From an uncultured bacterium (GTDB taxonomy: Bacteria; Fermentibacterota; Fermentibacteria; Fermentibacterales; JCC-6), in NCBI GenBank assembly GCA_964582075.1, contig CAZOQQ010000001.1, forward strand, positions 1 to 38,068: 38,068 nucleotides of DNA, written 5' to 3'. The notes under the pieces are model-generated. The model searched no databases, had not been told where the DNA came from, and saw nothing but the letters and a program-made list of their open reading frames with translations. The position numbers and the translations under genes are program-made. Below, one piece after another: positions 15,286 through 34,470 of this stretch (position 1 is its first letter; every line of letters starts with the position of its first letter).

Positions 15286-16307
15286 AAACTCTCCCTGGAG
15301 CTTTCCAGTCTGTCCGCGTACATTGAGCGGTAGTACTCCCTGAATTCACCTGATTTGATACCCTGCCACCAGGCACGGTTTTTCATGTACCAGTCCGCGG
15401 CCTTTCTTAAACCATCTTCGAAGTCTGTTTCAGCCTTCCAGCCGATTTCATTACGGATCCTGTTTACATTCAATGCGTAACGTCTGTCATGGCCGGGACG
15501 GTCTTCAACGTACCTCACAAGGTCTTCCCCTGCACCGGTCATCTTAAGTATGAAAGAAGTAATATCCCTGTTCGTGTATTCCTGTCCGGCGCCTATATTG
15601 TAAATTTTGCCCGGTTCGGATTTTTCCAGTATCATGATAAGAGCCCTGCAGTGATCTTCAACGAACAACCAGTCCCTCCGGTTCAGACCATCTCCGTACA
15701 AAGGAAGTTGTTCACCATCCAAAGCGTTCGTGATAAACAGAGGAATCAGTTTTTCCGGGTATTGGAAAGGACCGTAATTATTGGAAGCCCTGGTAACGGT
15801 AACAGGTATCCCGTACGTGGTCCAGTAGCTCATTGCCAGAAGTTCGCCACCGGCTTTCGATGCCGCGTAGGGACTTCTTGGAGCAAGCTGATCGGTTTCA
15901 AGGGAAGTGCCACTTTCCACGCTGCCGTACACTTCATCGGTCGAAATCTGCAGAAAGAGGTGCCTGTTTCCCCTTCGGAAGGCTTCCAGCAGCACCCTGA
16001 CACCTTCCATATCCGTTCTGACGAAAGAGGCAGAATCATCAATGGATCTGTCAACATGGGTTTCCGCTGCAAAATTAACGACCGCGTCGCACCCTTCGAT
16101 AGCCTCGGATACCGGGAGTTCATCGCATATATCCCCATGCACGAATCTGAAACGAGGGTTACTATCAAGATCAGCAAGGTTCTCCCGTCTGCCTGCATAG
16201 GTCAGTTTGTCAAGGACGGTTATCTCCCAGTCGGGTCTGGTTTCAAGCGCTAACCTTGTGAAATTACTTCCTATAAAACCGGCTCCCCCGGTAACGAGTA
16301 ATCTCAT
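15282..16307 (-). CDS. rfbB: dTDP-glucose 4,6-dehydratase
   Basis: Start taken at the internal ATG 16307 ([16 protein letters not shown]), which overlaps the rfbA stop (ATGA). [15 protein letters not shown] (YxxxK), [16 protein letters not shown]. The 22 upstream codons of the listed ORF lie inside rfbA. Confidence 0.9.
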
Positions 16308-17038
16308 ATTGTAATTCCTTCCCGGAGCTTTCTCGCCATTATCCCGGCCTGCAGCAAACCGTCGATACTGCATCCGGAATCAGCCCACCATCCTTCGATG
16401 ATATCGGCATGGAGTCTGTTTTCCTTAAGGTAGGCATTGTTGATATCGGTAACTTCAAGCTCACCTCTGGCAGACGGTTTGAGGTTATCGATTACTTCAA
16501 ATACAAAACTGTCGAACATGTAAACACCTATTACCGCGTAACTGCTCCTGGGATTCCGGGGTTTCTCCTCGATGGAAATTACCCTGTTTCCGTCCAGTTC
16601 AGCCACTCCGTAATCCCTGGGATTATCAACTTGCTTCAGCAGTATCCTGGCTCCGCCATCCTGTTTTTCAAACGCTGTTACTTTATCCGAAAGTGAATCT
16701 TCAAGAATATTATCACCAAGAATTACTACGAATTTTTCTCCACCGACAAAGGTTCTTGTAAGGCCGATTGCCTCGGCAATTCCGCCCTCATTCACCTGGT
16801 AGGCATAGTTCAGAGTATCCAGCCCGAAGTCCGATCCATCCCCCAGCAGCCTGAGAAAATCTCCCGCGCTGTTACCGCCCGTAACCAGCATGACATCTTT
16901 TATCCCGGCTTCAGCCAGTTTCTGCAGCGGATAGAAGATCATGGGCTGGTCGTAAACTGGTAACAGATGTTTATTTGTTATACTTGTAAGGGGTCGGAGT
17001 CGTGTACCGAGCCCCCCCGCGAGCACCACGCCTTTCAT
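16304..17038 (-). CDS. rfbA: Glucose-1-phosphate thymidylyltransferase, short form (sugar-1-P nucleotidyltransferase)
   Basis: MKGVVLAGGLGTRLRPLTSITNKHLLPVYDQPMIFYPL. 244 aa. GGAAGGA RBS 7 nt upstream. Confidence 0.8.
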   Translation of the reverse strand: MKGVVLAGGLGTRLRPLTSITNKHLLPVYDQPMIFYPLQKLAEAGIKDVMLVTGGNSAGDFLRLLGDGSDFGLDTLNYAYQVNEGGIAEAIGLTRTFVGGEKFVVILGDNILEDSLSDKVTAFEKQDGGARILLKQVDNPRDYGVAELDGNRVISIEEKPRNPRSSYAVIGVYMFDSFVFEVIDNLKPSARGELEVTDINNAYLKENRLHADIIEGWWADSGCSIDGLLQAGIMARKLREGITI

Positions 17039-17055: not shown

Positions 17056-19230
17056 CTATCGTACAACAGCAAGCTTCTGAAACCTGTCATTACCATTTTG
17101 CGTTAGCCGGACAACATAGGTACCCGAAGCCACCGGGTTTCCATCGAGATCGCGGCCATCCCAGGAAAATGTATCCCTGTATTGCGACAGGGACACATAA
17201 ACAAGTTTTCCCGTCAGGTCAAACAGGTGTATATCGAACATATCGTCCGGCAGACCGGCCACGCCAAGTATCTGTCCTCCTCCGGGGATAAACGGATTCG
17301 GATAAACTGTGGCGGTTTCAAGACTGCCATTCATGCCCTGCTCAAGAGTCAGTTTCCATAAACCGTTATCCGTTACAACGTAAAGATACCCGTTTTCGAA
17401 GTCACAGGCAGCGTTTCTGATATTCGTTGTCTGGAGAGGCGAGTTAAAAGTATTGTACTCCTCCACCGTTCCATCGGGATAAATCCTGTAAAGACCATCG
17501 GCGGATGCCGCCCACAGACAGGAAAGATTATCAAAACAGAGCGTGTTAATGTTTCCGCTGATCTGTTCCACCTTCGAAATGCTTTCACTTCCGGTATTCA
17601 TGTACACGAGACCACCGGTCGTGCCTATAAAGAGCCTGCCGTCCCTTGAAAGCGCGAGAGACTGAACATCCTCCGAAGGAAGGCCTTCACTTATTCCTGC
17701 CGAAGACAGTACCCGTCCCGTCTGGATATTCCCTTTAATCAGTCCCTCTTTGCTGCCCATCCAGGCTATCACTGAAGAAGATGTTGCCACTACCGATCTC
17801 ACATCTCCGGATGGAAGTCCATCGGATGGTTCAAATGTTTCCCAGGACGCAGTTTCAATTTGCCCTGGCGTCCAGGACAGTCGGCAGACACCACTGGCTT
17901 CGGTGGGAGTCTGCCAGTAAGCTTCCTGTGCAAACCATATTTTGCCCGATTCTGAAATAGCCATTTCAGTTATCTGATCGTTCAGAAGACCGCTGTTCTC
18001 CGATGTAAAGTTCAGATAAACGTCGTCGCTCCTGTCCGGTGTTCCCTTCCAGTCAAGCCACGTGACTCCATAATGCCATGGAGCAATAAACACGCCTCCG
18101 GAATTGTCCGCCAGGCAGGAAAATACCTGATCCTTGTTCGGCAGTTCACTTATGAATTCAATCCAGCCGTACTTACTGAAAACCGCGGCGCCCCTTCTGT
18201 TGGTTGCAACCCACACATCGTTCCTGGAATCCACATCAACCGAATAAAGATCGTTCGAGGGAGCGCCCCGGGGATACGATGATTTCCAGGAGTTTATGGT
18301 TCCCGTCGCCACGCCATTACCCGAAGTCCGGTTAACCGCGTAGGCAGAACTTAGTCCTAAAACAAGGCTGTCTCCGGGAATCCATCTGATTGCCTGAACA
18401 ATCTGCCCCGCAAGCCCGGATGAACCGCTGCTCCAGCCGGTTCCATCGAAAATCGCAACACTGCCTTTGTCACCTGCCGCAAGAAGCCCGTCGGACGACG
18501 CGAGGGAAACCGGATAACTGCCCGGATATGAAATGTCCTCCTGCCAGTCCTGGCCCGCTGCCAGGTAGTAAAGACCATCCGTCGAAGCGGCCCATACGGT
18601 ATCTCCCAGTATTTCAATATCCTGTACTATCAGATTCGCCGCAGAAGGGAACTTCAACCAGGAATCGAACTGTCCTGGCGGTCGATTTGCGCGAAGCATG
18701 ACAAGTCCATTTGAAGTCCCGACAAAAAGTCCGGAATCTACGGAGGCAACACAGTTAACAATATCCGAAGGTAAACCTCCTTCAGTTGTAAGTTCGGTCC
18801 AGACATTGAAATATCCAAGTTTCTTGCTGCACAGTCCCGCAGTGGTGCCAACCCACACGGTTGTATCGGGAAAAATACAGTTGATCTCAAGCGATATGGG
18901 CAGCCCCTCAAGCTGTCCGTAATGCTGAAAACCACCTGAAGCAAGGCTTACGTCAATACCCCCGCCATAGGTTCCCATCCAGAGATTCCCGGAGGAATCC
19001 ATGGCAAGACACCTGGTATCGCTGTGTGAAAGATTTCCGGGACAGGTCCAGGTTGAATCCCAGGTAATTTCGCCGGACCGAATTGAACCGAAAATAACGC
19101 CGCCGCTGGTAGCGCCTGTTACCGTTGATCCTTCCACGATGACATCGTTGACACCGCCAAAATGCGTATAATGACTCCAATCGGAAATTCTACCAGTCAG
19201 GATTACGCTGCATATCATCAGCAGAGTCAT
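17056..19230 (-). CDS. Secreted multi-blade beta-propeller protein (two-component-regulator-propeller-like repeats) with a T9SS-type/FlgD-Ig-like C-terminal domain; paralog 1
   Basis: Start placed at ATG 19230 (GGGAGG RBS; ATGA overlap with the SDR stop). N-terminal signal MTLLMICSVILTG. At least 10 repeats of the W/F-x-G/A-T/S-x-x-G-L type (LWMGTYGGGI, VWVGTTAGL, LFVGTSNGL, VWAASTDGL, LFIGTTGGL, LWAASADGL, LYVVTDNGL). C-terminus VYPNPF...FDLTGKLV...WDGRDLDGNPVASGTYVVRL...QKLAVVR. Confidence 0.8.
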   Translation of the reverse strand: MTLLMICSVILTGRISDWSHYTHFGGVNDVIVEGSTVTGATSGGVIFGSIRSGEITWDSTWTCPGNLSHSDTRCLAMDSSGNLWMGTYGGGIDVSLASGGFQHYGQLEGLPISLEINCIFPDTTVWVGTTAGLCSKKLGYFNVWTELTTEGGLPSDIVNCVASVDSGLFVGTSNGLVMLRANRPPGQFDSWLKFPSAANLIVQDIEILGDTVWAASTDGLYYLAAGQDWQEDISYPGSYPVSLASSDGLLAAGDKGSVAIFDGTGWSSGSSGLAGQIVQAIRWIPGDSLVLGLSSAYAVNRTSGNGVATGTINSWKSSYPRGAPSNDLYSVDVDSRNDVWVATNRRGAAVFSKYGWIEFISELPNKDQVFSCLADNSGGVFIAPWHYGVTWLDWKGTPDRSDDVYLNFTSENSGLLNDQITEMAISESGKIWFAQEAYWQTPTEASGVCRLSWTPGQIETASWETFEPSDGLPSGDVRSVVATSSSVIAWMGSKEGLIKGNIQTGRVLSSAGISEGLPSEDVQSLALSRDGRLFIGTTGGLVYMNTGSESISKVEQISGNINTLCFDNLSCLWAASADGLYRIYPDGTVEEYNTFNSPLQTTNIRNAACDFENGYLYVVTDNGLWKLTLEQGMNGSLETATVYPNPFIPGGGQILGVAGLPDDMFDIHLFDLTGKLVYVSLSQYRDTFSWDGRDLDGNPVASGTYVVRLTQNGNDRFQKLAVVR

Positions 19231-20171
19231 ACTTCCGCCTCCCACCATGAAAATAGTTTCTTCAGCCCATCGAACCTGTTAACTTCGGGTTTCCATCCAA
19301 GCAGGGATTGAAGTCTTGAAGGGTTACCTACCTGAAATTCAACATCCGCGGGTCTGAACAGATCGGGATCGACCTCAAGCCTGATACTCAGGCCGGATAT
19401 CTCGATAAGCATTCTTACCATATCACCTATACTGCTGCCCTGTCCTGTACAGACATTGTAAATACTTCCGGAATGACCCCTGTCAAGAATATACCGGTAG
19501 GCCCTTGCGACATCGGTTACGTACAGATAGTCTCTCACCGGACTCAGGTTTCCAACGCGGATGGTGTTATCCCCGTTCCGTCGCGCTTCAATGATTCTCC
19601 TGCAAAAGGAAGGAAACGCGAAATCCCCCGATTGTCCGGGACCCAGATGGGGAAACGAGCGGGAAATGACAATATCAAGGTCGTAGTTTCTGGCAAATTG
19701 AAATGCGGCTATTTCAGCTGCGGCCTTTGTGGTCCCGTACGGATTTATGGGACCGATTTCACTGTTTTCGGTAATCAGATCATCGGTTGATTTGTAAACC
19801 TCGGATGAACTCGCGAGAAGCATCCTTGCTCCGGGACATTTGGAGGCCATATACTCCAGAACCGATACCGTTCCCATAAGATTGATTTCGTACGCCCTGT
19901 GTATCTCCTTCAGAGATTTTGACACGGAACTCATTGCTGCAAGATGTACGATATAACGTACTTCTCCAAGATCATCCGGTGGATGTGAGGGAAGATTCCA
20001 GACAATTTTCCTTACTCCGGGAGGAGCCATGAAATCATCGGTTATATCGGCAGCAATATCACCTTCCCCCAGGCCGAGTTCGTTCATAAGATGGTAACCG
20101 GCGAAACCCGCAGCACCGGTTACAAGAACAGGTTCGTGCTTCATGCCGAAATTGCCGTTATGCACTGACAT
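19227..20171 (-). CDS. NAD-dependent epimerase/dehydratase family (extended SDR); candidate NDP-4-keto-6-deoxyhexose reductase
   Basis: VLVTGAAGFAGYHL, SSSEVY, YGTTKAAAE (YxxxK). GGAGGA RBS; the ATG lies 2 nt after the murB stop. The specific activity is inferred from context only. Confidence 0.65.
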   Translation of the reverse strand: MSVHNGNFGMKHEPVLVTGAAGFAGYHLMNELGLGEGDIAADITDDFMAPPGVRKIVWNLPSHPPDDLGEVRYIVHLAAMSSVSKSLKEIHRAYEINLMGTVSVLEYMASKCPGARMLLASSSEVYKSTDDLITENSEIGPINPYGTTKAAAEIAAFQFARNYDLDIVISRSFPHLGPGQSGDFAFPSFCRRIIEARRNGDNTIRVGNLSPVRDYLYVTDVARAYRYILDRGHSGSIYNVCTGQGSSIGDMVRMLIEISGLSIRLEVDPDLFRPADVEFQVGNPSRLQSLLGWKPEVNRFDGLKKLFSWWEAEV

Positions 20172-20173
20172 TG

Positions 20174-21100
20174 CTATCTCCTCCGACCAAGATACCGGAT
20201 TTCCTCTTCAAGCAGGATTCCGCTCATGGATAGTACGGATTCCTTCACCGTTTCAATAAGTCCCGCGATATCGTCAGATGTCGCACTCCCGGTATTAACA
20301 ATAAAATTCGCATGCTTTTCCGAAACCATCGCTCCACCCGTCCTTCTTCCCTTCAATCCCGCATCCTCTATAAGTTTCCCGGGGGGAACTCCTTCTTCGG
20401 GTTTTTTGAATACGCTTCCCGCACAGGGGTACTCGAGCGGAAATTTCTTTCTTCTCAAATGCAGGATTCTCTTCCCTTCTGTCCGAAGGGAAACAGGGTC
20501 ATCAGTCGCAAGCGACATTTCAACTTCTATGACAACCGACTTCTCATCCTGGAACCTGCTGAATCTGTACCCGAAACAGCAGTCACCAACATCCACAATA
20601 TCCTTCGAACCCCTGCGATCCAATACCGAAACGCTTGTCAGTACATCCGATATTGAATGTCCGTAAGCCCCGGCATTCATAAAAACAGCGCCTCCAACCG
20701 TTCCGGGAATACCTATTGCGAATTCCAGCCCTGACGCTCCTTTGCCGCAGGCAGCCCCGGAAAGGGACGGGAGGTGAACACCCCCTCCGCTTCTCAGAAT
20801 CCAGCCGTTTCCCGAAGGATACCAGGAAGTCTTTGCCATATCCCCGGTAAGTCGGATGATTATTTCTTCACAACCGTAATCAGATGCAAGTATATTAGAT
20901 CCCTGTCCAAGAATAAACCATGGAATTCCCTCACCGGACGTAATTCCCAGAAGATCGGCAAGCATGGTGAAAGAAGAAACATCTATCGAAACAGCCGGGC
21001 CTCCGGTTTTCCAGGTAGTAAATTCACGCAGCTGTATTATCTCTACATCTTCGGGGAAATGCTTCCTTATCAACGAATGCGCCGCTGTGATACTTTCCAT
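20174..21100 (-). CDS. murB: UDP-N-acetylenolpyruvoylglucosamine reductase
   Basis: FTTWKTGGPA, GQGSNIL, GIPGTVGGAVFMNAGAYG, FGYRFSRF, AGSVFKKP, GGAMVSEKHANFIVN, LEEEIRYLG. The catalytic Arg/Ser/Glu contexts are all present. Confidence 0.88.
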   Translation of the reverse strand: MESITAAHSLIRKHFPEDVEIIQLREFTTWKTGGPAVSIDVSSFTMLADLLGITSGEGIPWFILGQGSNILASDYGCEEIIIRLTGDMAKTSWYPSGNGWILRSGGGVHLPSLSGAACGKGASGLEFAIGIPGTVGGAVFMNAGAYGHSISDVLTSVSVLDRRGSKDIVDVGDCCFGYRFSRFQDEKSVVIEVEMSLATDDPVSLRTEGKRILHLRRKKFPLEYPCAGSVFKKPEEGVPPGKLIEDAGLKGRRTGGAMVSEKHANFIVNTGSATSDDIAGLIETVKESVLSMSGILLEEEIRYLGRRR

Positions 21101-21240
21101 AACTCCCGCCAGGCTAATTAAATATCTGTGGATTCAGGACAGAACGCAAACTCACCGGTCTTCCGAAACGATTTCCCGATAACAGCACAACCCTGTTTCC
21201 ATTCGAGGTTTCATCTCTAAACTGAATCTGAAGAGATATT

Positions 21241-22677
21241 TCAGGTTTCATCCGTATCACCGCCTTCCATCCGTGTACCCGGCAGCCGGAGGTAAGCCAT
21301 CGCGGAAACGGTGATAATCGTAGCGATAATTACGATAGAGGCTCTCCAGCCGGGACCGAGCATGGCCATGGCTCCAAACGCGATTGGAGGCAGGACTGTC
21401 AGAACAACTACAAGGAAATTTATAGGGAATACTTTCCTTCCCAGCCAGAAAAGGCTGAGCGCCATGAACAGGTTGGTCCCGAGCGTCGCGAAAGCTGCGC
21501 CAAGGGCCCCGGCCACGGGTATAAGACGGAAATTGAACCCGATGTTGAGCATGGCTCCGAACAGGGTCATACCTGCAATGAACTTGGTCTGTCCGGTAAG
21601 CAGACACCCCGTCTGAGATACAAGAAACAGTCCGTAAAGCGCTACAGCTCCCGCAAGTGTAGGCAGAACCCTGAGCGCCGGAAGAAAATTCTCTCCTCCC
21701 ACCAGAGGAACGATCCAGCCGGAAGACATTGCCAGGAGCAGTGAAATCCAGTTCACCAGAAGCATGAAAAGCAGTCCGGTTCTTCCCAGTTCGGCCAGTG
21801 TGCCGCCGGTTCTCTTCTTCCGGAAAATGAATCGCTTCCAGGCCATATTGAAACCCAGTATCATCGGCATGAGAACAAGGCATGCTCTGCTGGCCCATTC
21901 GTAGTACCCGCTTTCCGCCATATCCGGATATATGCTTCTGAGCATGAACATATCCGCCGATGAAAGAACTATCATGGAAAGCGTTGCGGGAATAAGCGGT
22001 AAACTGAAACCAAGGATTTCTCCGGTAAGTCCTTCCACAGTCTTGTATCGTTTCGAATGCGCGGTTCTTTTCCACATCATCACCACCGCCGCGAATGCGA
22101 TCAGGAACGACGGCGCCCATCTTGCCGTCATGAAAGAAGGTATGGAATCCATAGCATGTGAATAGAGCAGCAGAATCAAAAGGCCGAGAGCTGCCAGCCC
22201 CCTTATCAGCTGGAAAATGAGATACCTTCCGGCAAGGCCATCGGCTCTGGGCAGTGTAAGAGCAATCTGAACGTATGCTATTCCTGTTCCAAGGAGAATC
22301 GCGTGAAATATGTAATCCGGATGCTGAAGATTCAGAAACGATTTCAGAAACCCCTGCAGAAGCAGTACTGCGGCAACCATCAGGAAGGATGGAACCAGCG
22401 GAAAGGTAATCGCTCTTACAAGAATGCTCCTGTGCTGTGATGTTCTGTGCCAGGCCCTTATAAGCGCGGTTGGAAGACCCAGAACCACTATACCCCCGAT
22501 GGCCTCTGCTATTATCCGCAGCGTTCCCAGTTCTCCAGCCGCGTCGGCGGTCAGATACCTGGAAATGAACGGCAGGAAAGCAACCTGAACCATTCCGCTG
22601 AAAACCATGGCCAGTGCGTAGAAAACGGTTTCCCGCGAAAGATCACGGTTATGCCCGGACGCTGAGGGTTCAGTCAT
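21241..22677 (-). CDS. wzx: Wzx-type oligosaccharide flippase (MOP superfamily)
   Basis: Start taken at ATG 22677 (MTEPSAS...), overlapping the upstream stop by 8 nt. About 478 aa with about 12-14 hydrophobic segments. Polysacc_synt-like N-terminus ALAMVFSGMVQVAFLPFISRYL. Confidence 0.75.
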   Translation of the reverse strand: MTEPSASGHNRDLSRETVFYALAMVFSGMVQVAFLPFISRYLTADAAGELGTLRIIAEAIGGIVVLGLPTALIRAWHRTSQHRSILVRAITFPLVPSFLMVAAVLLLQGFLKSFLNLQHPDYIFHAILLGTGIAYVQIALTLPRADGLAGRYLIFQLIRGLAALGLLILLLYSHAMDSIPSFMTARWAPSFLIAFAAVVMMWKRTAHSKRYKTVEGLTGEILGFSLPLIPATLSMIVLSSADMFMLRSIYPDMAESGYYEWASRACLVLMPMILGFNMAWKRFIFRKKRTGGTLAELGRTGLLFMLLVNWISLLLAMSSGWIVPLVGGENFLPALRVLPTLAGAVALYGLFLVSQTGCLLTGQTKFIAGMTLFGAMLNIGFNFRLIPVAGALGAAFATLGTNLFMALSLFWLGRKVFPINFLVVVLTVLPPIAFGAMAMLGPGWRASIVIIATIITVSAMAYLRLPGTRMEGGDTDET

Positions 22678-23758
22678 CGGAAAGCTTTTCCTCCCAACCG
22701 AGATCTCTGTACATCCTGTGAATCTCCCGCGCGACAGAAAGCCAGTGATGTTTTGTCCTGATCCATGGTGGACCGGCCTGCGCGTACTTCTCCCTGAGTT
22801 CGCGATCAAGAATCAGTTCCTTCAGGTCACGCTTCAGAGTATCCTTTGTTGTTAAGAAGAACGGATGGTCAGGTATGAAATTCTGATACGCTTCGGAGAG
22901 ATTGGTAACCGTGGCAATACCCATGGAAAGGCTTTCCAGAGAGTTTACACCGTAACCCATATCTCCGCTCGCAACCTGGTCGATCGCTATGTGACAGGTG
23001 GATTTGATCCTCAGGGCATCAGCGTTTGTCATGTTCTCGATAAGAACAAGTTCAACCGGTACTTCCTTCGAAAGATCCTCTACCGCCGCAATTATCTCCC
23101 CGGTTCCTTTAACAGATCTTATTCGGGGCGCGTGACATATACGTACTTTCCCGGAAGAGGGCGAGGAACGGGGCATGGCGCTTCCGTCAAACGGCAGAAA
23201 AAGGTAATCAACTTCGGGATATCTCCGGTACAGATCGAATTCACATGTCAGGTTCAGGTCGGTGGCTTCCCATACCGGTCTTATGGCTCCCCTCATTCTG
23301 AGATCCAGTCCATGGTAATAGGATACTATTTTCTTGCCGGCCTTCTTCAGGGCGATAACATCCCTGCCATCCCTGAAAAAGCTCATCCCGCCTTCAAGAT
23401 GGTATATGTCGAAATCCCAGAGCCCGTATTCTTCAGCCGCCCTGTTTATGACGGGCTGCCAGAACATATCCCTGAACCTGAGCATCAGGTTTTCAACAGG
23501 CCCCGGGTTCCAGAATACCTTGCCCGCCGCTCCGCTGTACGGTACCCTCAGGCTGCCCGCCTTAACAAATTTCTTCACTTTCTGCAGCCATGGCATGGGA
23601 CCGACAAAGGGAAGGTTCAGACAAATATCCTCTTTGTAAAGGTTCTCAGCCCTGTAGAAAGTGACAAGCCTGCTTTCGTGGCCCAGTTCTATGTGCCCGC
23701 GCACGAACAGGTCAATTGTTCCGGTATAGTTCTGTGGTGAGAGGTGCAGGATTTTCAT
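22670..23758 (-). CDS. GT-B fold glycosyltransferase (GT4-like)
   Basis: Start at ATG 23758 (MKILHLSP...), in ATGA overlap with the upstream stop. C-terminal half shows the GT4 pattern KGTGEIIAAVEDL...VELVLIEN...IAIDQV..GDMGYGVNSLESLSMGIATV. Confidence 0.65.
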   Translation of the reverse strand: MKILHLSPQNYTGTIDLFVRGHIELGHESRLVTFYRAENLYKEDICLNLPFVGPMPWLQKVKKFVKAGSLRVPYSGAAGKVFWNPGPVENLMLRFRDMFWQPVINRAAEEYGLWDFDIYHLEGGMSFFRDGRDVIALKKAGKKIVSYYHGLDLRMRGAIRPVWEATDLNLTCEFDLYRRYPEVDYLFLPFDGSAMPRSSPSSGKVRICHAPRIRSVKGTGEIIAAVEDLSKEVPVELVLIENMTNADALRIKSTCHIAIDQVASGDMGYGVNSLESLSMGIATVTNLSEAYQNFIPDHPFFLTTKDTLKRDLKELILDRELREKYAQAGPPWIRTKHHWLSVAREIHRMYRDLGWEEKLSDD

Positions 23759-25047
23759 AACGTGACTCTTTCTCTGCCGTGACTTTTTTTCAGATACCTG
23801 ATCCCCGCCATGGCGAGCGCCGCGGCCGCAGCTGCCTGTGCCGCTATTCCAGCCCACATCGGAATACCCGCGGATTCGGCAGCGGTGGCTCCGAATATAT
23901 CCGGAACACCCGTGGCGAAATTCCTGAAAGCCGCGATCAATGGAGACGAGGAGTAGCTCCAGAGTACCGCCTGCCGTGAGGACTCATCGAACAAATCAGC
24001 GCCTGATGCCTGTTCAAGCAGGCTTGGATTGCTCCAGAAAGCGGGAATACAGACGATAATTCCTACTGCGGCGATTACCCGGAACAGTTTCCCCCCGGTT
24101 CCGCTTTTCAAAAGAGGAAACAGCAGGAAAGGCAGCGTTGTAAAAAGAAAACGTGGCCCCCATCCGGTACCGCCGGACCAGTCATGAAGCATGGCGTGAA
24201 AAAAGAGAGACAGTACGAATGGAGTCCGGAATCTCCAGTTTTCCCGGAAAAATAACGCGAAAACACAGAGCGGGGCGTAGTACAAAAGACCCTTTCCCGG
24301 ACTCAGCAGAAGCCCGGGTATACCTCCCCGAAACGGTTCAATCGCGATTGCCGGATCCTGTCCGTGTCCATCGATGAACGGGTTTCCAAACCTGTACCAG
24401 TTCAGAAACAGTATCATTAACAAAAAGGGAACAAGCCCGGAAACGAATTTTATCATGCTCTCCCGGTCGTTCCAGAAAAGGGGAAGCAGAAGAAGACTGT
24501 CAACCCTTACAAGAACAGCGAGTCCGAAACACAGACCGGCTGTGAACATTCTGCCGCGAAGAGAAAAGAAAAAACCCGCCATCGCGGCGGAAGCGGCAGC
24601 GGTGACATCGAAAGTCATCCTTCCGTAAACAAGAACCATTCCACCGATGGCGACAGCTATAAACCGAAGAACAGATACGCTTTTGTACTTTATTCCCGCT
24701 GAAGCGAACCAGAAGCCGACCAGAGCAAGGCTGAAACCTGCATTCAACAGAGCGGTCACAATTTTACCGCCGCCAGACCCGAAGTACCCGCCGGCTATTG
24801 CTGCCGGAATAAGCAGGATGGAGAACCCGACGCCATGCGGAACGAAAAGGCCGGGCCTTGTACCATGGACGGTCCAGCCGTAATCTCCCGAAACCGTCAT
24901 GAACGCTCTCTGCCCTACAAAGGATCCGGCAACCTCATACTGAGCGAGCACATCGGTTGTGTACATCCTTCCAGCAAAAACAAGCGCGAGCAGCGCCGCC
25001 CAGAGAAGAAGCACAGCGTAAAGACGGAATTTCCGAGCTGATTCCAC
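23755..25047 (-). CDS. Polytopic membrane protein: GT-C-like (ArnT/PMT-type) glycosyltransferase, or a Wzy/WaaL-type polymerase/ligase candidate
   Basis: 430 aa with about 11-12 TM segments. GTG start overlaps the FemAB-like stop by 1 nt (TAGTG). The first external loop carries TTDVLAQYE acidic residues. SPGKGLLYYAPL loop motif. Family assignment is by eye only. Confidence 0.45.
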   Translation of the reverse strand: MESARKFRLYAVLLLWAALLALVFAGRMYTTDVLAQYEVAGSFVGQRAFMTVSGDYGWTVHGTRPGLFVPHGVGFSILLIPAAIAGGYFGSGGGKIVTALLNAGFSLALVGFWFASAGIKYKSVSVLRFIAVAIGGMVLVYGRMTFDVTAAASAAMAGFFFSLRGRMFTAGLCFGLAVLVRVDSLLLLPLFWNDRESMIKFVSGLVPFLLMILFLNWYRFGNPFIDGHGQDPAIAIEPFRGGIPGLLLSPGKGLLYYAPLCVFALFFRENWRFRTPFVLSLFFHAMLHDWSGGTGWGPRFLFTTLPFLLFPLLKSGTGGKLFRVIAAVGIIVCIPAFWSNPSLLEQASGADLFDESSRQAVLWSYSSSPLIAAFRNFATGVPDIFGATAAESAGIPMWAGIAAQAAAAAALAMAGIRYLKKSHGRERVTL

Positions 25048-26015
25048 TAAACGCTTCCGAACAGTGTGTTTCTGAAAATACCCCTTGCTGAGAAAGATTC
25101 CTTGAACCGGCAGAGACCGTAGTTAACATCCATGTTCAGGGTAAATGTACCAAGATCCATATACTGGTATCCCATCTGTTTGGCCCATTTGATAACTTCC
25201 ATGTAAACAAGGTTGACGGGTCTGAGAGCCTGACGCTCCTGATCATGGGAGATGTAGAATGCCAGTGTAACTCTGGGATTGCAGTGGAACATCACCATAC
25301 CGGCAAGAACTTCTCCGTCCAGAGTTGCGATAAACTGTCTGACATGGTCCTGACCAAGCAGATCGCGGATTTTCGTAAGTTCCTCAAGTGTATGGGTAGG
25401 TTTAACATTATGACGCTGCTGAAGGTTCGATTCCAGTACATGGTAGAAGAGCGCGAAATCGGGATTCTCTTCAACTTTCACATTGTTCTTTACAGCTTTT
25501 CTTACTCCCCTGAGGGCGGACGATCGAAAACCCAGCTTAAGTTCTTCTCCAAGCCTTCCGAGGTCGATTACAGCGGTCAGTTCCCTCTTCCTGTATTTGA
25601 AGCCGCGTTTCAAAAGAGAAAACTCCAGATAGTTATGGGGCCTGCGATAATAGACCATGGGAGGGGAAGTCATTTCCATACCCTTCCAGCCCCGGGATTT
25701 GCAGTAGACAAGCAGCTTTTCAACAGTGTTTTCGATTTTCTTCAGACCGGATGAATCGTTGAATACCGGCCCGCCGTACGATGCTCCGGGATAGGACGAA
25801 AACCAGATCCCATCCTCCCTTTCAACCAGTGCGCCGGGAACAACCGATACGATTTCATTCCTGTTCTCAACTATCAGGTGATGGTTCCGGAACCTGCCTT
25901 CGGGATGATAATCAAGAAAATCCGGCAGATGAAAAACGGTACCGTTGTTGGAACGCAGTACGAAATCCGTCCACCTGCCCCTGTCTCCCGGTTCGGCCGG
26001 TCTTACCTTCATCAT
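25047..26015 (-). CDS. FemAB / BioF2-like (GNAT-fold) acyl- or aminoacyl-transferase
   Basis: 322 aa. N-terminus MMKVRPAEPGDRGRWTDFV..NGTVFHLPDFLDYH and a two-lobed GNAT-like layout (FYHVLESNL...; GEVLAGMVMFH...AFYISHD) resemble FemAB-related proteins of EPS loci. ATGATGA overlap with the propeller-2 stop. Confidence 0.55.
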   Translation of the reverse strand: MMKVRPAEPGDRGRWTDFVLRSNNGTVFHLPDFLDYHPEGRFRNHHLIVENRNEIVSVVPGALVEREDGIWFSSYPGASYGGPVFNDSSGLKKIENTVEKLLVYCKSRGWKGMEMTSPPMVYYRRPHNYLEFSLLKRGFKYRKRELTAVIDLGRLGEELKLGFRSSALRGVRKAVKNNVKVEENPDFALFYHVLESNLQQRHNVKPTHTLEELTKIRDLLGQDHVRQFIATLDGEVLAGMVMFHCNPRVTLAFYISHDQERQALRPVNLVYMEVIKWAKQMGYQYMDLGTFTLNMDVNYGLCRFKESFSARGIFRNTLFGSV

Positions 26016-28255
26016 CTTACTACTGCAATCTTGCTTCGTATAAACTGGTTACCTGTCCTTACAAGAACGATGTAGATACCACTTGCAAGAACCGACCCGT
26101 CAAGCGTACCATCCCAGTGCCATTCGTCCGGGTCTTCAGCCTGAACCGAACCCAGATATCTGCCCGTCAACGTGTAAAATTCAACCGAGACAGGTTCTCC
26201 GGAACCGGACCATACCAAATGCAGATCTTCCTCGGCGGGAAGGTAAGGTTGCGGATAGAAAAGAGGATTGATGCTTTCCACGGGATTCTGTACCTGGGAA
26301 ATGGACCACAGGCCTACCACGGAAGAAAAGAACACGGCTTCATCTGCGGGATCGAAAGAACTGAATTCATTCTCAGTTCTGATCGTGGGAATGTAGATTG
26401 AATTTGAACCGGTGTATCTGGCTATGTCCGTTCCGTCAATGCTGTAAACCGCTTCATCAGTCAAACACCAGACAACCCCGTTGTTGTTTGCCTGTATGGC
26501 TTTAACAATGCCGGAGATTTCGGGTATTTCCACAAAAGAGCTGCCGTTCCAGCGACATGCTCCGTTTCCGGTCCCCGCGAAAATATCACCGTTCGTGCTT
26601 CTGGTAAAACAGAAAACCTGGTTGGAAGGGAGTCCCGTTGAAGTTGTAAACACCTGTCCGTATCCGGGATACCACGTATCCGAAGATTTATCCATCGGAT
26701 CACCGCCATGAACAAGAAGCTGGCAGCCTCCATCCGATGCGAATGCAATCCATAAACTGTCCTTGCCGCACGGAAACAACATCTGGATGTTTTTGTTCGC
26801 CAGACCGTCATTTTCAGTTCTGGTGGTCCACTGCAGGTTTCCCGCTTCCGGTTCTCCCGATACCACGGTAATGCCGCTGGGTTCATCGGGCGTCTGCCAG
26901 AATGCATTCTGCGCAATCCAGAGGGCTCCGTCCTGGGAGGCCAGCATGACAACCTGGTTGTTAAGCAGCGGGGAGACTATCTGAACCACATCCGGTGAAA
27001 CACCCGGAAGCGAATCGGAAACGTAGGTTATTACGGTGTCATCCTCCATTGAATACGTTCCCCTGTCGTCTATCCATGTCAGACCCCAGTGATAACTTCC
27101 GGTCCAGATTCCCGGACATCCCGACTTGGCCGCTGAATAGGTCCTGAGGGTATGCGGCATACTGGTTGTGTACTTGTTAAAGGCTGTCCATCCACTGTCA
27201 GGATAGTAGGCCATCAGGCCCAGTCGATGGCTGCCGATGTATATCCTGTCATCGTCACGGGCACGCTGATAACAGCTTGGGCATGCCATGCTGGGTACGG
27301 GAATAGTTTCCCAGGTTCCGCTTTGCAGGTAACCCAGTCCCCTGCCCGTATCACGACAGTTAGCGCCATACACTCCGTAGCCGCACCATACTCTGCCTCC
27401 GGTTTCCAAAAGGCACGAAACGTACGCTTCACTCGGATACTCCGAACCGTAGGGGACCCAATTCCCGTTACGGTACAGAAGAACTTTCCTGCATCCCGCT
27501 ATAAGGCCATCATCCGTCATCACCAGCCCCTTTACCACGGTTTCGGTGCTGGCTGAATAGTCAAGCAGACGTATCCATCTGTCACCGGACATCTGCGATA
27601 CGCCGCCCGAACCGTAACCGAAAACGGAATCGGAGGAAACTATGTAGATATCATCGATTCCAAGAGCAATCGTTGAATCCTCGTAGCTTGTCCAGGAGTT
27701 CGGATTTAAAATGCTCCCGGTAAGATCAAGGGAATACACTCCCCTGTTCGTCGCGAAGTACATCGTATTACCGGTACGCGCCATATCGGTAACTTTCGTG
27801 GCTTTGAACGCTCCGCCGGTGAGTTCGGAATCTATGGACAGGAAACCTTCGGCATTTCCACGCGCAAGACCACCGTCGGTACCGGCCCAAATGTACCCTC
27901 CGGCTCCGATTACAGAATAAACATAACCGTTGCCGGGCACGCCTTCGTAAACGGAGAAGGTCCGGGCCGTGTCACCCTGCAGCAGAATCAGACCTCCGCC
28001 TCCCGAAGCGATCCATTTGAGAGAATCATCCAGAAAGATATCCGTCGTGGATATCCAGGATATTTGATCCGGGTACAAAAGACTGTCCAGCCAGCCTTTT
28101 TCGGGATCGTACTGGATCACTCCCCCGGCCGTAGCGCACCATATCGTTCCATCAGCACCCGGGACCATTGAGAAAATATAGGATTGGGATGTTTCAAAAT
28201 TCCAGTTGGCGGAAATACCGCCAATAATCAGAAGGGCAATGTTAATCGCAGTCAT
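26012..28255 (-). CDS. Secreted multi-blade beta-propeller protein with a T9SS-type/FlgD-Ig-like C-terminal domain; paralog 2
   Basis: 747 aa with signal MTAINIALLIIGGISA. Same repeat type (IWCATAGGV, KWIASGGGGL, IWAGTDGGL, MYFATNRGV, LWIAFASDGG, IFAGTGNGA). Shares the block IW[FI]AQ[EN]A[YF]WQTP[TD]E[AP]SG with paralog 1. C-terminus FYPQPY...FYTLTGRYL...WDGTLDGSVLASGIYIVLV...SKIAVVR. Confidence 0.8.
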   Translation of the reverse strand: MTAINIALLIIGGISANWNFETSQSYIFSMVPGADGTIWCATAGGVIQYDPEKGWLDSLLYPDQISWISTTDIFLDDSLKWIASGGGGLILLQGDTARTFSVYEGVPGNGYVYSVIGAGGYIWAGTDGGLARGNAEGFLSIDSELTGGAFKATKVTDMARTGNTMYFATNRGVYSLDLTGSILNPNSWTSYEDSTIALGIDDIYIVSSDSVFGYGSGGVSQMSGDRWIRLLDYSASTETVVKGLVMTDDGLIAGCRKVLLYRNGNWVPYGSEYPSEAYVSCLLETGGRVWCGYGVYGANCRDTGRGLGYLQSGTWETIPVPSMACPSCYQRARDDDRIYIGSHRLGLMAYYPDSGWTAFNKYTTSMPHTLRTYSAAKSGCPGIWTGSYHWGLTWIDDRGTYSMEDDTVITYVSDSLPGVSPDVVQIVSPLLNNQVVMLASQDGALWIAQNAFWQTPDEPSGITVVSGEPEAGNLQWTTRTENDGLANKNIQMLFPCGKDSLWIAFASDGGCQLLVHGGDPMDKSSDTWYPGYGQVFTTSTGLPSNQVFCFTRSTNGDIFAGTGNGACRWNGSSFVEIPEISGIVKAIQANNNGVVWCLTDEAVYSIDGTDIARYTGSNSIYIPTIRTENEFSSFDPADEAVFFSSVVGLWSISQVQNPVESINPLFYPQPYLPAEEDLHLVWSGSGEPVSVEFYTLTGRYLGSVQAEDPDEWHWDGTLDGSVLASGIYIVLVRTGNQFIRSKIAVVR

Positions 28256-28270
28256 GTGAGCCGAAACCTT

Positions 28271-29020
28271 TCAAAACAACCAGGGGAAACGAAGGTGCCA
28301 TACCATCCATACGGCTTCCCAAACGATACTTTTCGTCATTTTTGATGTACCGGCGTGCCTGTCGACAAAAGTTATAGGTATCTCTTTTATACTGCAGCCC
28401 GAATCAAAAAGCTTGTAAGAAACTTCTATCTGAAAGGAGTAGCCGTCGGACTTAATACCGCTTAGATCGAGTTTCTCGAGAGCTTTTCTTTTGAACGCCT
28501 TGAAACCACCGGTAGCATCCTCAACCGGAAGTCCCGTTATCAGTTTCGTATACCTGTTGGCAAACCAGGAGAGCAGAAGCCTGGACAGGGGCCAGTTAAC
28601 CACATTTACGCCGCTGCAGTAGCGGGAACCGATCGCAAGATCGCATTCTTCAAGAGCCTCAACCAGTTCTACGACCTTTTCGGGCTTATGAGAAAAATCG
28701 GCGTCCATCTGGATGATTGGGTCGAAGCTGTCCCTTTCCAGCGCCCATTTGAACCCGGCAACGTACGCCTGTCCCAGACCTGCTTTTCCAGGTCTGCTAA
28801 GAAGATGGACTCTCTCCGTTGGCTCGAATTCACGTACCGTGGCTCCGGTTCCGTCGGGACTGTTGTCATCGACCACAAGAATATCAGGTTTTATCGGAAG
28901 ATCCAGTAAAACAGGAATCAATCTGCCGATATTCTCAACCTCGTTGTAGGTAGGAATAACTATCAAGGGTGTTTTCAAGAGACCTCCGCTTTCTACATTT
29001 CGTTTAATATACTTATTCAT
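28271..29020 (-). CDS. Polyprenol-phosphate hexose synthase (Dpm1/Ppm1/GtrB-like GT2)
   Basis: IVIPTYNEVENI, ILVVDDNSPDGTG, LLSRPGKAGLGQAY, QMDADFSH, GGFKAF, and a hydrophobic C-terminal tail IVWEAVWMVWHLRFPWLF. The ORF also opens at ATG 29074, but that would overlap the divergent gene start at 29065. Neither start has a clear RBS. Confidence 0.8.
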   Translation of the reverse strand: MNKYIKRNVESGGLLKTPLIVIPTYNEVENIGRLIPVLLDLPIKPDILVVDDNSPDGTGATVREFEPTERVHLLSRPGKAGLGQAYVAGFKWALERDSFDPIIQMDADFSHKPEKVVELVEALEECDLAIGSRYCSGVNVVNWPLSRLLLSWFANRYTKLITGLPVEDATGGFKAFKRKALEKLDLSGIKSDGYSFQIEVSYKLFDSGCSIKEIPITFVDRHAGTSKMTKSIVWEAVWMVWHLRFPWLF

Positions 29021-29064
29021 TACTGAATCGGAACAGCATACTTCATCCAGTCTGGAGGGAAACC

Positions 29065-30108
29065 ATGACAACATTCAGAAGCAGTACATTGTTAATTCCT
29101 GTTATTCTGTTTTCCGCGCTTCCCCTGCAAGCATTGAAAGTATTCCCCCTGATCAGCTACAGTTCCAGCTCCGGGCTGCTTCTTGGCGGCATTATGAGCC
29201 ACAACATGGTTCCTCCTTTCACCCCTTTTGGTTTCAGCACAATGGCATACGTATATACCGATGGCAGCATTTCCGCTGAACCGCAGCTTCTGTTCAAAGC
29301 GGGAAGCGGGATAGCCAGGTTCAATATCAACTATCACGTAAGTCGCGGAAACAAGTTTTTCGGCTGGGGCAACGGAGGTGACAACGAACTCTACGAATTC
29401 TACGATTCAGAAACACAGGAAATTTCAGGTTCGTACAATTTCACTCCCTTTTCCGGTATTATCTTAACGGGAGGGCTGCTGTCCAGGCATTCCACCATTT
29501 ACAACAGACTGAACAACCGGTTATGGGAGCAATCGCCAACGGACAAATTCGGTTCTCTTTGGACCGCGGGACCTTTCATGGAAGGCGTCTGGATTATTCC
29601 ATCTCTTATAGACGGATACTTCAAAACCGGATACGATCTGCAGCTGGGCGACAATATTACATATCACAACACCGATCTCGCCCTGTCCGTATTCACCCCT
29701 GTGGGAACTTCAACTGTGCCCTGCTTTCGCGCAAAGATAACCCGACACGGAGGAACAGCTTCAACACCGTTTCCATATCTCCCCTCTCTCGGAGGCAGTT
29801 CGGGTCTTCGCGGCTACAAAGATACCCGTTTCGGAGGCAACTGGTCTCTCCTCGGGAATCTCGAACTTCGCCAGAGGATCTTCTCTTATACTATCGATGA
29901 GGATAATTCCTTTAGCCTATCCCTGGTTCTCTTCGGCGACGCGGGCCAGGTAGCCGATCACCTGGGTGATTTTCAGTGGAGCGGGTTTCACTTCGACGGA
30001 GGCCTCGGTGCCCGAATAACGTTACCCGGAGGCAGTTCACTCCGGGCTGATTTTGCCCTGTCTCCCGAAGGACTGGGTATACAGATGGGTATGGGAGAAC
30101 TGTTTTGA
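29065..30108 (+). CDS. Omp85-family outer-membrane beta-barrel (bacterial surface antigen domain) without POTRA domains
   Basis: GGAGGG RBS 5 nt upstream. Signal peptide MTTFRSSTLLIPVILFSALPLQA. GGSSGLRGYKDTRFGGNWSLLGNLELR, LFGDAGQV, and a terminal ...GMGELF. 347 aa leaves no room for POTRA repeats. Confidence 0.7.
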   Translation: MTTFRSSTLLIPVILFSALPLQALKVFPLISYSSSSGLLLGGIMSHNMVPPFTPFGFSTMAYVYTDGSISAEPQLLFKAGSGIARFNINYHVSRGNKFFGWGNGGDNELYEFYDSETQEISGSYNFTPFSGIILTGGLLSRHSTIYNRLNNRLWEQSPTDKFGSLWTAGPFMEGVWIIPSLIDGYFKTGYDLQLGDNITYHNTDLALSVFTPVGTSTVPCFRAKITRHGGTASTPFPYLPSLGGSSGLRGYKDTRFGGNWSLLGNLELRQRIFSYTIDEDNSFSLSLVLFGDAGQVADHLGDFQWSGFHFDGGLGARITLPGGSSLRADFALSPEGLGIQMGMGELF

Positions 30109-33040: not shown

Positions 33041-33057
33041 AAATTCTCCTAAGGCAG

Positions 33058-33549
33058 TTACAAATTCAGTCTGTTTCTCTGTTTCTCAAGGTACGAAATG
33101 TGTCCTATTTCCTCGTCTATTATTTCGTACACCCTTTCCTTGCCCAATATTGGCGAGACCAGCCTTTCCAGCCCCACGAAAAAAAGAAGAGAATCCTTTT
33201 CGAACTGTATCGCGCGGTTTATTATCTTTCCGGTATCATCACCCATCTCCGATATAAGTTCACCCATATCCCGCTTGAAAACATGGTCATCAGCCATGGC
33301 TTTCAGGTACAGCGCCGATTCGGTGTACGGGTCGAACGAAGTCCGTGCTTTCTCATCCTCATCGAGATCCATTCGCATCGCCGCGAAGATATCCTCATGT
33401 CCCTTTTCCCATTCGGCAAGATCTGAAAGAAGTTTTGAAACTTCGAAATCGTTCACGGCTTCCGAAGCTCTCCGGTAGAATTCCTGTCCGTTTCTTTCTA
33501 TCTGCTCGGCCATTTTCAGCACTTCTTCAGCGTTGAAGAGGGTTTCCAT
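33058..33549 (-). CDS. Ferritin-like diiron four-helix-bundle protein (rubrerythrin/erythrin family, no rubredoxin domain)
   Basis: Ligand pattern E ([12 protein letters not shown]), ExxH (EKGH), E (QFEKDS), ExxH (EIGH). Start chosen at ATG 33549 (AGGTG RBS 7 nt upstream). The ATG at 33555 and the ORF start at 33603 are alternatives. Confidence 0.7.
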
Positions 33550-33559
33550 ATCCATACAC

Positions 33560-34075: not shown

Positions 34076-34077
34076 GT

Positions 34078-34455: not shown

Positions 34456-34470
34456 TACTGTACCTCCCTG

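Follow-up and report, generated by a model that had tools for sequence, protein, structure and literature searches.

Two PorZ-like double beta-propeller proteins encoded together with a VimA-like FemAB-family transferase in a cell-envelope glycan operon of Fermentibacterota

In Porphyromonas gingivalis both PorZ and VimA are needed for the surface attachment of secreted proteins, and this functional link came from biochemistry and genetics, not from gene context. PorZ binds the anionic lipopolysaccharide (A-LPS) and helps to pass it on to the PorU sortase; its own C-terminal domain stays uncleaved (PMC8545088). VimA installs a serine or glycine on the linking sugar after deacetylation by VimE, and has been reported to match the family model TIGR03019 (Veith et al., PMC7468200). 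VimA of Tannerella forsythia has been studied by complementation of a vimA mutant, with the mass of the linking sugar as the read-out (PMC7468200). The linker is built as aminoacyl-sugar-Hex-dHex(Pent)-Hex, the cargo being amide-linked to the aminoacylated tip sugar (PMC13086638). Here we describe a glycan operon in a stretch of 38,068 nucleotides from an uncultured bacterium (positions 1 to 38,068 of contig CAZOQQ010000001.1, assembly GCA_964582075.1; hereafter the window) of the Fermentibacterota, a phylum placed within the FCB group (NCBI taxonomy). The genome is Aegiribacteria-like, and orthologues at 73-78% identity carry the names Candidatus Aegiribacteria or Fermentibacteria. The operon encodes two beta-propeller proteins, propeller-1 and propeller-2, with type IX secretion system (T9SS) C-terminal domains, and the gene for propeller-2 directly precedes that of a FemAB-family transferase. 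A first-pass annotation of the sequence had taken both propellers for dedicated T9SS cargo. The analysis given below indicates instead that they are very probably diverged proteins of the PorZ lineage and in-paralogs of each other. The features concerned are as follows.

17056-19230, minus strand: propeller-1, a PorZ-like paralog of 724 aa (730 aa if started at 19248), with two predicted propellers ahead of a T9SS type A C-terminal domain (NF052228, TIGR04183, hhalign, AlphaFold2 model)
17059-17307, minus strand: C-terminal sorting domain of propeller-1, residues ~642-724 (TIGR04183 on 648-727 of the 730-aa form; beta-sandwich in the model)
26012-28255, minus strand: propeller-2, a PorZ-like paralog of 747 aa, with two predicted propellers ahead of a T9SS type A C-terminal domain (NF052228, TIGR04183, hhalign, AlphaFold2 model)
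26015-26257, minus strand: C-terminal sorting domain of propeller-2, residues ~667-747 (TIGR04183 on 667-745; aligns with the C-terminal domain of the PorZ-like profile)
25047-26015, minus strand: FemAB-family transferase of 322 aa, VimA-like (PF13480, PF02388, TIGR03019)

The presence of two secreted-type paralogs of about 730 residues inside a glycan operon, as first annotated, was confirmed. Propeller-1 and propeller-2 align over their full length with 24% identity (~750 columns, E 7e-40, BLASTP), sharing the block KIWFAQEAYWQTPTEASG / ALWIAQNAFWQTPDEPSG in the BLASTP alignment and closely related tails, which read YPNPF...WDG..DG..VASGTY..KLAVVR in propeller-1 and YPQPY...WDG.LDG..LASGIY..KIAVVR in propeller-2. 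The assignment of these tails to the T9SS is borne out by TIGR04183, the NCBIfam model of the T9SS type A sorting domain, which gives 28.7 bits for propeller-1 and 24.9 bits for propeller-2 against a cut-off of 23; the scores on PF18962 (22.3 and 16.2 bits) lie below the threshold of 27. At the other end a hydrophobic N-terminal segment is conserved across the orthologues, with a median best 10-residue Kyte-Doolittle value of 2.7 for propeller-1 and 2.6 for propeller-2. An alternative upstream ATG exists for propeller-1 at 19248, and most orthologues start with MTLLM, equivalent to 19230. In AlphaFold models obtained from the orthologue alignments (pLDDT 90.5 and pTM 0.87 for propeller-1; pLDDT 86.9 and pTM 0.79 for propeller-2) about 55 strands precede the C-terminal sandwich, that is, about 14 four-stranded blades in each protein. 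This predicted architecture fits two seven-bladed propellers followed by a T9SS type A C-terminal domain; the earlier count of at least 10 blades was too low.

The first evidence on the identity of the propellers comes from family models. The top NCBIfam match of both is NF052228, which describes PorZ as the T9SS anionic-LPS delivery protein (126.4 bits and E 1.3e-36 for propeller-1, 31.6 bits for propeller-2), and PorZ is likewise the top or sole NCBIfam match, below its cut-off, for each tested orthologue of either family. The nearest full-length relatives of propeller-1 outside the Fermentibacterota, P0081 and P0070, reach 244 and 212 bits with the PorZ model over nearly the whole profile. 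Their wider relatives, the named ones belonging to Gemmatimonadota, Latescibacterota, KSB1, Zixibacteria, Ignavibacteria and Bacteroidota, in many cases carry PF21544, the N-terminal propeller of PorZ.

Profile-profile comparison extends the kinship to the entire chain. With hhalign, the propeller-1 family aligned to 21 PorZ-like proteins of other FCB phyla with a score of 577 (E 3.2e-70) over 680 columns and the propeller-2 family with a score of 489 (E 2.5e-59) over 685 columns, the C-terminal domain being included in both cases, whereas the control alignment of propeller-1 to Reg_prop sensor kinases reached a score of 345 (E 1e-40) over 516 columns and covered the propellers only. That the comparison set consists of genuine PorZ proteins is supported because one of its members, P0148, directly precedes a PorU-like gene, a Peptidase_C25 protein of 1241 aa that begins after 4 nt (L090, 6001-11968, on a contig of 1.28 Mb). 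In a neighbour-joining tree built on saturated distances, and therefore only rough, the PorZ-like proteins split from the sensors in 81 of 100 bootstraps. The propeller-1 and propeller-2 families are sisters in 99 of 100 bootstraps of the neighbour-joining tree, which points to a duplication within the Fermentibacterota.

The structural comparison leads to the same protein. The best Foldseek match in the PDB is PorZ (5M11) for propeller-1 (whole-chain TM 0.66, E 3.8e-31) as well as for propeller-2 (TM 0.60, E 9.7e-25), and 5m11 is also matched by propeller-1 in a phmmer search (6.5e-16). The periplasmic domains of the Bacteroides hybrid two-component system (HTCS) sensors BT4663, BT4673 and BT3049 belong to the same propeller repeat family (Reg_prop, PF07494) and give significant matches (phmmer 1.8e-16, Foldseek 1e-27 to 1e-22), but they superpose globally at a TM of only 0.34; moreover, the propellers of the window have neither the Y_Y_Y domain nor the transmembrane segment and kinase of those sensors, and carry a T9SS C-terminal domain instead. 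With PorZ of P. gingivalis (5M11), which delivers the anchor glycan within the PorU-PorV-PorQ-PorZ attachment complex of the T9SS and interacts there with PorU and PorQ, their models share two seven-bladed propellers and a T9SS-type C-terminal beta-sandwich, arranged as in PorZ. They differ from it in that the propellers are only 16-17% identical to it, occur as two copies per genome, and are encoded inside a glycan operon whose genes they overlap; in the papers covered porZ is not placed in the vim and A-LPS clusters of P. gingivalis, the position of porZ itself not having been considered. A further difference is the motif AQE[AP][YF]WQTP.EPSG, located at residues 432-450 of propeller-1 (~17881-17937) and 446-464 of propeller-2 (~26864-26920), which is kept in both paralog families throughout the phylum, is specific to them, and does not appear in the consensus of the PorZ-like proteins from other phyla. 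It may form a lineage-specific ligand-binding loop.

We carried out a motif-seeded alignment scan of 185,579 species-representative genomes with the FemAB-like protein, from which 80 loci were kept. The orthologues in these 80 genomes are 32-83% identical to the protein of the window, and all labelled genomes outside the Fermentibacterota belong to FCB-group phyla, WOR-3 or Edwardsbacteria. In 45 of the 80 loci the identity of the FemAB-like protein is 62-83%; the named ones are all Fermentibacterota, and these loci show the gene order of the window. The same operon order with its gene overlaps was also seen where genes had been called near propeller-1 orthologues that are 40% and 55% identical. 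All 32 Fermentibacterota loci long enough to include the position of propeller-1 have this gene, and 39 of the 43 informative ones have propeller-2. In the other four (L023, L025, L027 and L031, at about 9150-10000) the GT2 gene is followed directly by the FemAB-like gene, and in L024 (8449-10000) an insertion of ~1.5 kb separates propeller-2 from the latter. Some orthologues are named by NCBI merely as T9SS type A sorting domain-containing protein. This synteny rules out a chance insertion of the propeller genes. The propeller-2 family was found in Fermentibacterota only. Its presence in every Fermentibacterota locus long enough to contain it makes propeller-1 the probable core PorZ equivalent. 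Propeller-2 evolves faster and some lineages do without it, so that it is probably a second, specialised adaptor.

The identification of a FemAB-like transferase proved correct. It matches PF13480 with 37.4 bits (threshold 22) and PF02388 with 24.0 bits (threshold 24); its best NCBIfam model is TIGR03019 with 53.2 bits, the equivalog cut-off of 260 not being reached, and the FemX model NF047883 gives 24 bits. The best PDB sequence match is 9wqy, an 'aminoacyl-tRNA-dependent peptide synthase' (E 4e-7). The match to TIGR03019 is the sole link to VimA, and on this sequence criterion we regard the enzyme as VimA-like; no cultured Porphyromonas or Tannerella genome is among the 80 loci of the scan. 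TIGR03019 is at the same time the model of the FemAB proteins associated with XrtA/PEP-CTERM systems, which like the enzyme of the window stand amid polysaccharide genes. A grouping with these proteins, named earlier as an outcome that would count against the first interpretation, does not discriminate, since VimA, too, is reported to match this model. Family scans revealed no exosortase or PEP-CTERM gene in the window, and in contrast to the XrtA-associated proteins the present subfamily has its orthologues in FCB-group genomes beside PorZ-like or PorV/PorQ-like genes.

Outside the Fermentibacterota the association of PorZ-like and FemAB-like genes is recurrent, not universal. The FemAB-like protein encoded next to P0081 is 45% identical to that of the window over its full length, and in the P0081 contigs (L004 and L005) and in Zixibacteria SM23_81 (L050) a PorZ-like gene lies directly before the FemAB-like gene, together with Wzx and glycosyltransferases. 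In L004 (16752-19818, Zixibacteria-type) this module is located between lnt and the mraZ-rsmH-ftsL-PBP (dcw) cluster. The complete genome CP070758.1, labelled 'Gemmatimonadota' at NCBI, contains in succession Lnt, a PorZ-like protein, the FemAB-like protein, a GT-C-like protein, the orthologue of the 362-aa glycosyltransferase of the window and Wzx; from the PorZ-like gene onward this is the order of the window block from propeller-2 to Wzx. In metagenome-assembled genomes of the Bacteroidia (HBSIN02; L078, 6343-15013) and the Ignavibacteria (BIN9; L073, 5215-17519), three T9SS-related genes precede the FemAB-like gene. The first encodes a propeller with a C-terminal sorting domain, which aligns with the second propeller and the C-terminal domain of PorZ-like proteins (probability 98.5%), and the next two are of the PorV/PorQ family, the copy adjoining the FemAB-like gene scoring 113 and 156 bits (cut-off 90). 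Downstream of the FemAB-like gene follow an orthologue of the glycosyltransferase and, farther on, a Wzx-like gene; the locus of the Bacteroidia contains an ArnT-like GT-C gene as well. By their gene content these loci look like parts of an attachment complex beside genes for the linking glycan.

Adjacency of the two genes as a rule for the whole FCB group was rejected, as among the 35 non-Fermentibacterota loci of the scan only L050 shows it. In the other FCB genomes the partners of the FemAB-like gene are Wzx, the 362-aa glycosyltransferase, and GT4, GT9 and GT2 enzymes, near rpoN, hslUV and lptA-like genes, a neighbourhood of the lipopolysaccharide (LPS) type. When the contexts of PorZ-like genes outside the Fermentibacterota were inspected, two (P0081 and the 'Gemmatimonadota' protein P0137) were found to precede a FemAB-like gene, one (P0148) to precede the PorU-like gene, and four had unrelated neighbours.

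These data bear on a possible role of the propellers as ordinary T9SS cargo, in which their C-terminal domain would be cleaved and they themselves anchored to the operon glycan as dedicated surface proteins. Such a role agrees with the T9SS type A domains above the TIGR04183 cut-off, with the bare sorting-domain name of some orthologues and with the co-transcription of the propeller genes with glycan genes. PorZ itself, however, has such a C-terminal domain and retains it (PMC8545088), and the propellers are homologous from end to end with PorZ-like proteins and have the PorZ crystal structure as their best structural match. Moreover, no locus that extends to the position of propeller-1 lacks this gene, and in two other phyla the same operon position is taken by PorZ-like genes; such invariant presence and position suit a part of the machinery better than cargo. 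We therefore consider the cargo role unlikely. A function as glycan-binding parts of the machine, mentioned in the first-pass annotation as an alternative, comes closer.

The propellers and the FemAB-like protein belong to a single co-directional array of 14 cell-envelope glycan genes on the minus strand, from ~29020 to 11947 in the list of open reading frames (ORFs). Its order is GT2, propeller-2, FemAB-like transferase, 430-aa membrane protein, 362-aa glycosyltransferase, Wzx-like, MurB, short-chain dehydrogenase/reductase (SDR), propeller-1, RmlA, RmlB, UDP-xylose synthase (UXS)-like SDR, Wza and Wzz/KpsE-like. The remaining genes of the array, and a divergently transcribed neighbour, are listed here.

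28271-29020, minus strand: polyprenyl-phosphate sugar synthase-type GT2 of 249 aa (ORF open to 29074), first gene of the operon (PF00535, 93 bits)
23755-25047, minus strand: polytopic membrane protein of 430 aa, probably a glycosyltransferase of GT-C fold (remote relatives matching PMT_2/PMT)
22670-23758, minus strand: glycosyltransferase of 362 aa, conserved partner of the FemAB-like gene (weak GT4/GT1 Pfam matches; ATGA overlap with the gene before)
21241-22677, minus strand: Wzx-like flippase of the MOP family, 478 aa (ORF open to 22809; assigned via orthologues)
20174-21100, minus strand: MurB, UDP-N-acetylenolpyruvoylglucosamine reductase (NF010480, 286.8 bits, cut-off 259; TIGR00179, 216.6 bits)
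19227-20171, minus strand: SDR nucleotide-sugar epimerase/dehydratase/reductase, 314 aa (PF16363, 161.6 bits; PF01370, 128.5 bits)
16304-17038, minus strand: RmlA-like glucose-1-phosphate thymidylyltransferase (TIGR01208, 236.8 bits, equivalog cut-off 320; TIGR01207, 234.2 bits, equivalog cut-off 361; neither reached)
15282-16307, minus strand: RmlB, dTDP-glucose 4,6-dehydratase (TIGR01181, 442 bits, above the cut-off of 365)
14353-15285, minus strand: UDP-xylose synthase/ArnA-like SDR, possible enzyme of a pentose pathway (NF008872 and NF005998, 104 bits each, both below cut-off)
13192-14325, minus strand: Wza-type outer-membrane polysaccharide export protein (PF02563, 53 bits; SLBB, 40 bits; EpsE, 65 bits)
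11947-13182, minus strand: Wzz/KpsE-like polysaccharide co-polymerase, last gene of the array, its place conserved (TIGR01010 BexC/CtrB/KpsE, 52.5 bits, below cut-off)
29065-30108, plus strand: barrel-only Omp85-like protein, 347 aa, divergently transcribed (NF047779, 85.6 bits, C-terminal part only)

Both overlaps of start and stop codons first noted at the propeller genes are real: the stop of the SDR gene and the start of propeller-1 share an ATGA at 19230-19227, and the stop of propeller-2 and the start of the FemAB-like gene an ATGA at 26015-26012, within the string ATGATGA at 26015-26009, which had been placed one base off. The same 4-nt ATGA overlap is found at 5 of the 13 array junctions (propeller-2/FemAB, membrane protein/glycosyltransferase, SDR/propeller-1, RmlA/RmlB and RmlB/UXS), and among the others there are one overlap of 1 nt, one of 8 nt and a widest gap of 140 nt. 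Tight overlaps are thus a feature of the whole operon and not of the propeller genes in particular, and a translational coupling special to the propellers is ruled out.

The Wzx-like, GT-C-like, Wza and Wzz-like functions suggested earlier for this locus find support of varying strength in family matches or in orthologues. The 430-aa membrane protein has no direct Pfam match and no usable PDB sequence match, and its sole NCBIfam match is a weak one to the LA_3751/LA_3752 family (22.8 bits); among its 1358 remote relatives, however, 12 of 30 sampled match PMT_2 and 2 of 30 match PMT, both GT-C families, and a relative stands at the same position in CP070758.1 (61 bits). The top NCBIfam matches of the GT2 at the operon head are of the AglJ, PpgS, ArnC and dolichyl-phosphate hexose transferase types; its orthologue ORFs measure ~235-330 aa and its position is kept in the Fermentibacterota loci. 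Periplasmic glycosylation usually relies on a GT-C enzyme paired with a polyprenyl-phosphate sugar synthase, and we infer from these family relationships that the membrane protein and the operon-head GT2 would form such a pair. Orthologues of the 362-aa glycosyltransferase (216-337 bits) are found near the FemAB-like gene in at least 16 loci of other FCB phyla. For the Wzx-like flippase of the window no direct Pfam match was obtained; its orthologue in L001 matches PF01943 weakly, and phmmer ties it to Polysacc_synt-positive genes beside the FemAB-like gene in other phyla. The assignment of Wza is clear (PF02563 and SLBB), those of the Wzz/KpsE-like co-polymerase and the Wzx-like flippase are weak. 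In 25 loci of relatives a further GT2 gene (~300-314 aa) lies between Wzx and MurB (L001, 7265-8164; L002, 7216-8157), and the corresponding interval of the window is just the 140-nt gap at 21101-21240; this lineage appears to have lost one glycosyltransferase there.

The Omp85-like barrel occurs at the divergent position in 41 of 48 Fermentibacterota loci and has no POTRA region. It gave no PDB sequence match and no match to PorV, PorQ or PorP models. The barrel might act together with the PorZ-like proteins in the outer membrane, although its membership of the system is uncertain.

Elsewhere in the window, two proteins of 401 and 307 aa with hydrophobic N-termini, apparently secreted and without an NCBIfam match, are encoded on the plus strand at 587-1792 and 1884-2807. 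The 401-aa protein (587-1792) ends in an aromatic residue (...SSEYYF), like outer-membrane beta-barrels, and the two genes are followed by that of a DNRLRE-domain protein at 3019-3642. On the other side of the operon, 32333-37393 contains an oxidative-stress cluster made up of a flavin reductase-rubredoxin fusion, rubrerythrin-like proteins, a rubrerythrin and a Fur-family regulator, and then a bacterial serpin of 419 aa (PF00079, 382 bits).

The comparison with the Wbp/Vim pathway (VimA, VimE, VimF and PorS in P. gingivalis and Tannerella forsythia) shows several likenesses. The FemAB/GNAT-type enzyme of the window matches TIGR03019 and its gene adjoins that of a glycosyltransferase, as vimA clusters with vimF; a Wzx-like flippase, the type of protein to which PorS belongs, is encoded nearby; and pathways for a deoxyhexose and possibly a pentose are present, these two sugar classes being found in the P. 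gingivalis linker. For the building-block classes of that linker (PMC13086638) the operon encodes candidate pathways. Beyond what the Wbp/Vim pathway comprises, it includes MurB, Wza and Wzz as well as a probable GT-C enzyme and a GT2 of the polyprenyl-phosphate sugar synthase kind.

By analogy we propose, with a confidence slightly better than even, that the glycan of the operon carries an aminoacylated linking sugar, is bound by the PorZ-like proteins and is presented by them to a PorU-type sortase. RmlA, RmlB and the SDR would supply a deoxyhexose and the UXS-like enzyme a pentose in nucleotide-activated form. Transfer of sugars in the cytoplasm would be followed by flipping through the Wzx-like flippase, and by decoration in the periplasm by the polyprenyl-phosphate-sugar synthase together with the GT-C enzyme. 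The FemAB-like, VimA-like enzyme would aminoacylate one sugar of this glycan. The PorZ-like proteins, exported by the T9SS and remaining at the cell surface, would bind the glycan and present its amino group to the sortase, which would then exchange the C-terminal domain of the cargo for the glycan as in Porphyromonas gingivalis.

Several observations weigh against this proposal. Concerning the propellers, neither score on NF052228 (126.4 and 31.6 bits) reaches its curated cut-off of 260 bits. PF21544 does not recognise either protein: propeller-1 obtains 15.6 bits (cut-off 27) at a non-equivalent position and propeller-2 no match. Concerning the secretion system, porU, porV, sprA and porKLMN were not found in the window and the operon-centred Fermentibacterota loci, to which the search was confined. 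NCBIfam scans of the window proteins and the large flanking ORFs detected no T9SS machinery, a profile hidden Markov model of the C-terminal domain detected no further sorting-domain protein in the Fermentibacterota flanks, and one made from the PorV/PorQ-like genes of L073 and L078 matched those four genes alone. For about 30 of the 35 loci of the FemAB subfamily from outside the Fermentibacterota there is no T9SS gene within 10 kb. The literature searched contained no report tying Fermentibacterota to the T9SS, and likewise no relevant one for Zixibacteria and type IX secretion. Concerning the glycan, family scans of the operon recognised no VimE-like CE4 deacetylase, no WbpA/B/D/E and no aminotransferase, and VimE CE4 deacetylase and WbpA/B/D/E are also missing among the conserved neighbours in the 35 loci of other phyla; because the locus has no VimE-like, Wbp or aminotransferase gene, the amine acceptor of the FemAB-like enzyme is left unexplained. 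The same scans of the operon recognised no initiating phosphoglycosyltransferase, Wzy or WaaL.

The presence of Wza and a Wzz/KpsE-like protein suggests capsule-type export rather than LPS, which also counts against the proposal and brings in another function for the PorZ-like proteins, namely that of lectin-like subunits of polysaccharide assembly and export with Wzx, Wza and Wzz, without any role in sortase anchoring; they might, for example, retain or organise a capsule-like polymer at the surface or in the periplasm. The double-propeller fold is a known glycan-binding scaffold in HTCS sensors and PorZ, both export genes are in the same operon, and no sortase or other T9SS gene lies nearby in the operon-centred Fermentibacterota loci. 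Against this, the propellers can make use of their C-terminal domains only with a T9SS, the Bacteroidia and Ignavibacteria genomes have this FemAB subfamily next to PorV/PorQ-family genes, P0148 of the comparison set adjoins a PorU-like gene, and no Wza or Wzz occurs in the stretches of CP070758.1 and of the Zixibacteria modules that were covered. We regard this function as possible but doubtful.

A last objection comes from MurB, which scores above its equivalog cut-off and sits in the glycan operon throughout the phylum. Together with the position of the Zixibacteria module beside the dcw cluster, it leaves room for a role of the FemAB-like protein in the cell wall. The protein would then be an aminoacyl transferase of the peptidoglycan type, similar to FemX, the operon a cell-wall operon and the PorZ-like genes regulatory or historical neighbours. 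A bona fide MurB gene in the operon, the location of the Zixibacteria module between lnt and dcw and the weak matches to FemX/FemAB models (24 bits each for NF047883 and PF02388) are in line with this, but TIGR03019 (53 bits) and PF13480 outscore FemX, the constant partners across phyla are Wzx-type flippases and glycosyltransferases and not mur or fts genes, and the subfamily is nearly confined to FCB-group genomes in the motif-seeded scan. A cell-wall role is accordingly judged very unlikely.

Taking the proposal of a PorZ-bound, aminoacylated linking glycan further, a further reading would be that the T9SS anchor of Fermentibacterota, and of two or more other FCB lineages, is not the Wbp/Vim-modified LPS of Bacteroidota style but another glycan, made by a self-contained module (PorZ-like, FemAB-like, GT-C, glycosyltransferase and Wzx), aminoacylated on a non-Wbp acceptor sugar, decorated by the GT-C enzyme in the periplasm and possibly exported by Wza/Wzz. 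The PorZ paralogs would then be a pair with division of labour, serving, e.g., two glycan epitopes or two cargo classes. We put this forward as a speculative extension that is rather unlikely. If true, the operon would represent the ancestral genes among which PorZ co-evolved with the enzyme for the linking sugar.

The protein families involved are known. In the literature searched we found no earlier report of a translationally coupled operon of PorZ-like, VimA-like and glycan genes, of its recurrence in three lineages, or of a PorZ duplication. The two functions linked in P. gingivalis are here physically joined, the PorZ-like gene standing directly before, and in the window overlapping, the VimA-like gene. 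Three lineages of phylum rank show this block, and a further one has the VimA-like subfamily beside PorV/PorQ-family genes. Such an arrangement provides independent evolutionary support for the model of a linking glycan handled by PorZ. It also nominates a compact candidate set of anchor-glycan genes for uncultured FCB phyla, with players that the P. gingivalis papers covered do not name among the genes specific to A-LPS, namely a second PorZ, a probable GT-C enzyme and a polyprenyl-phosphate sugar synthase.

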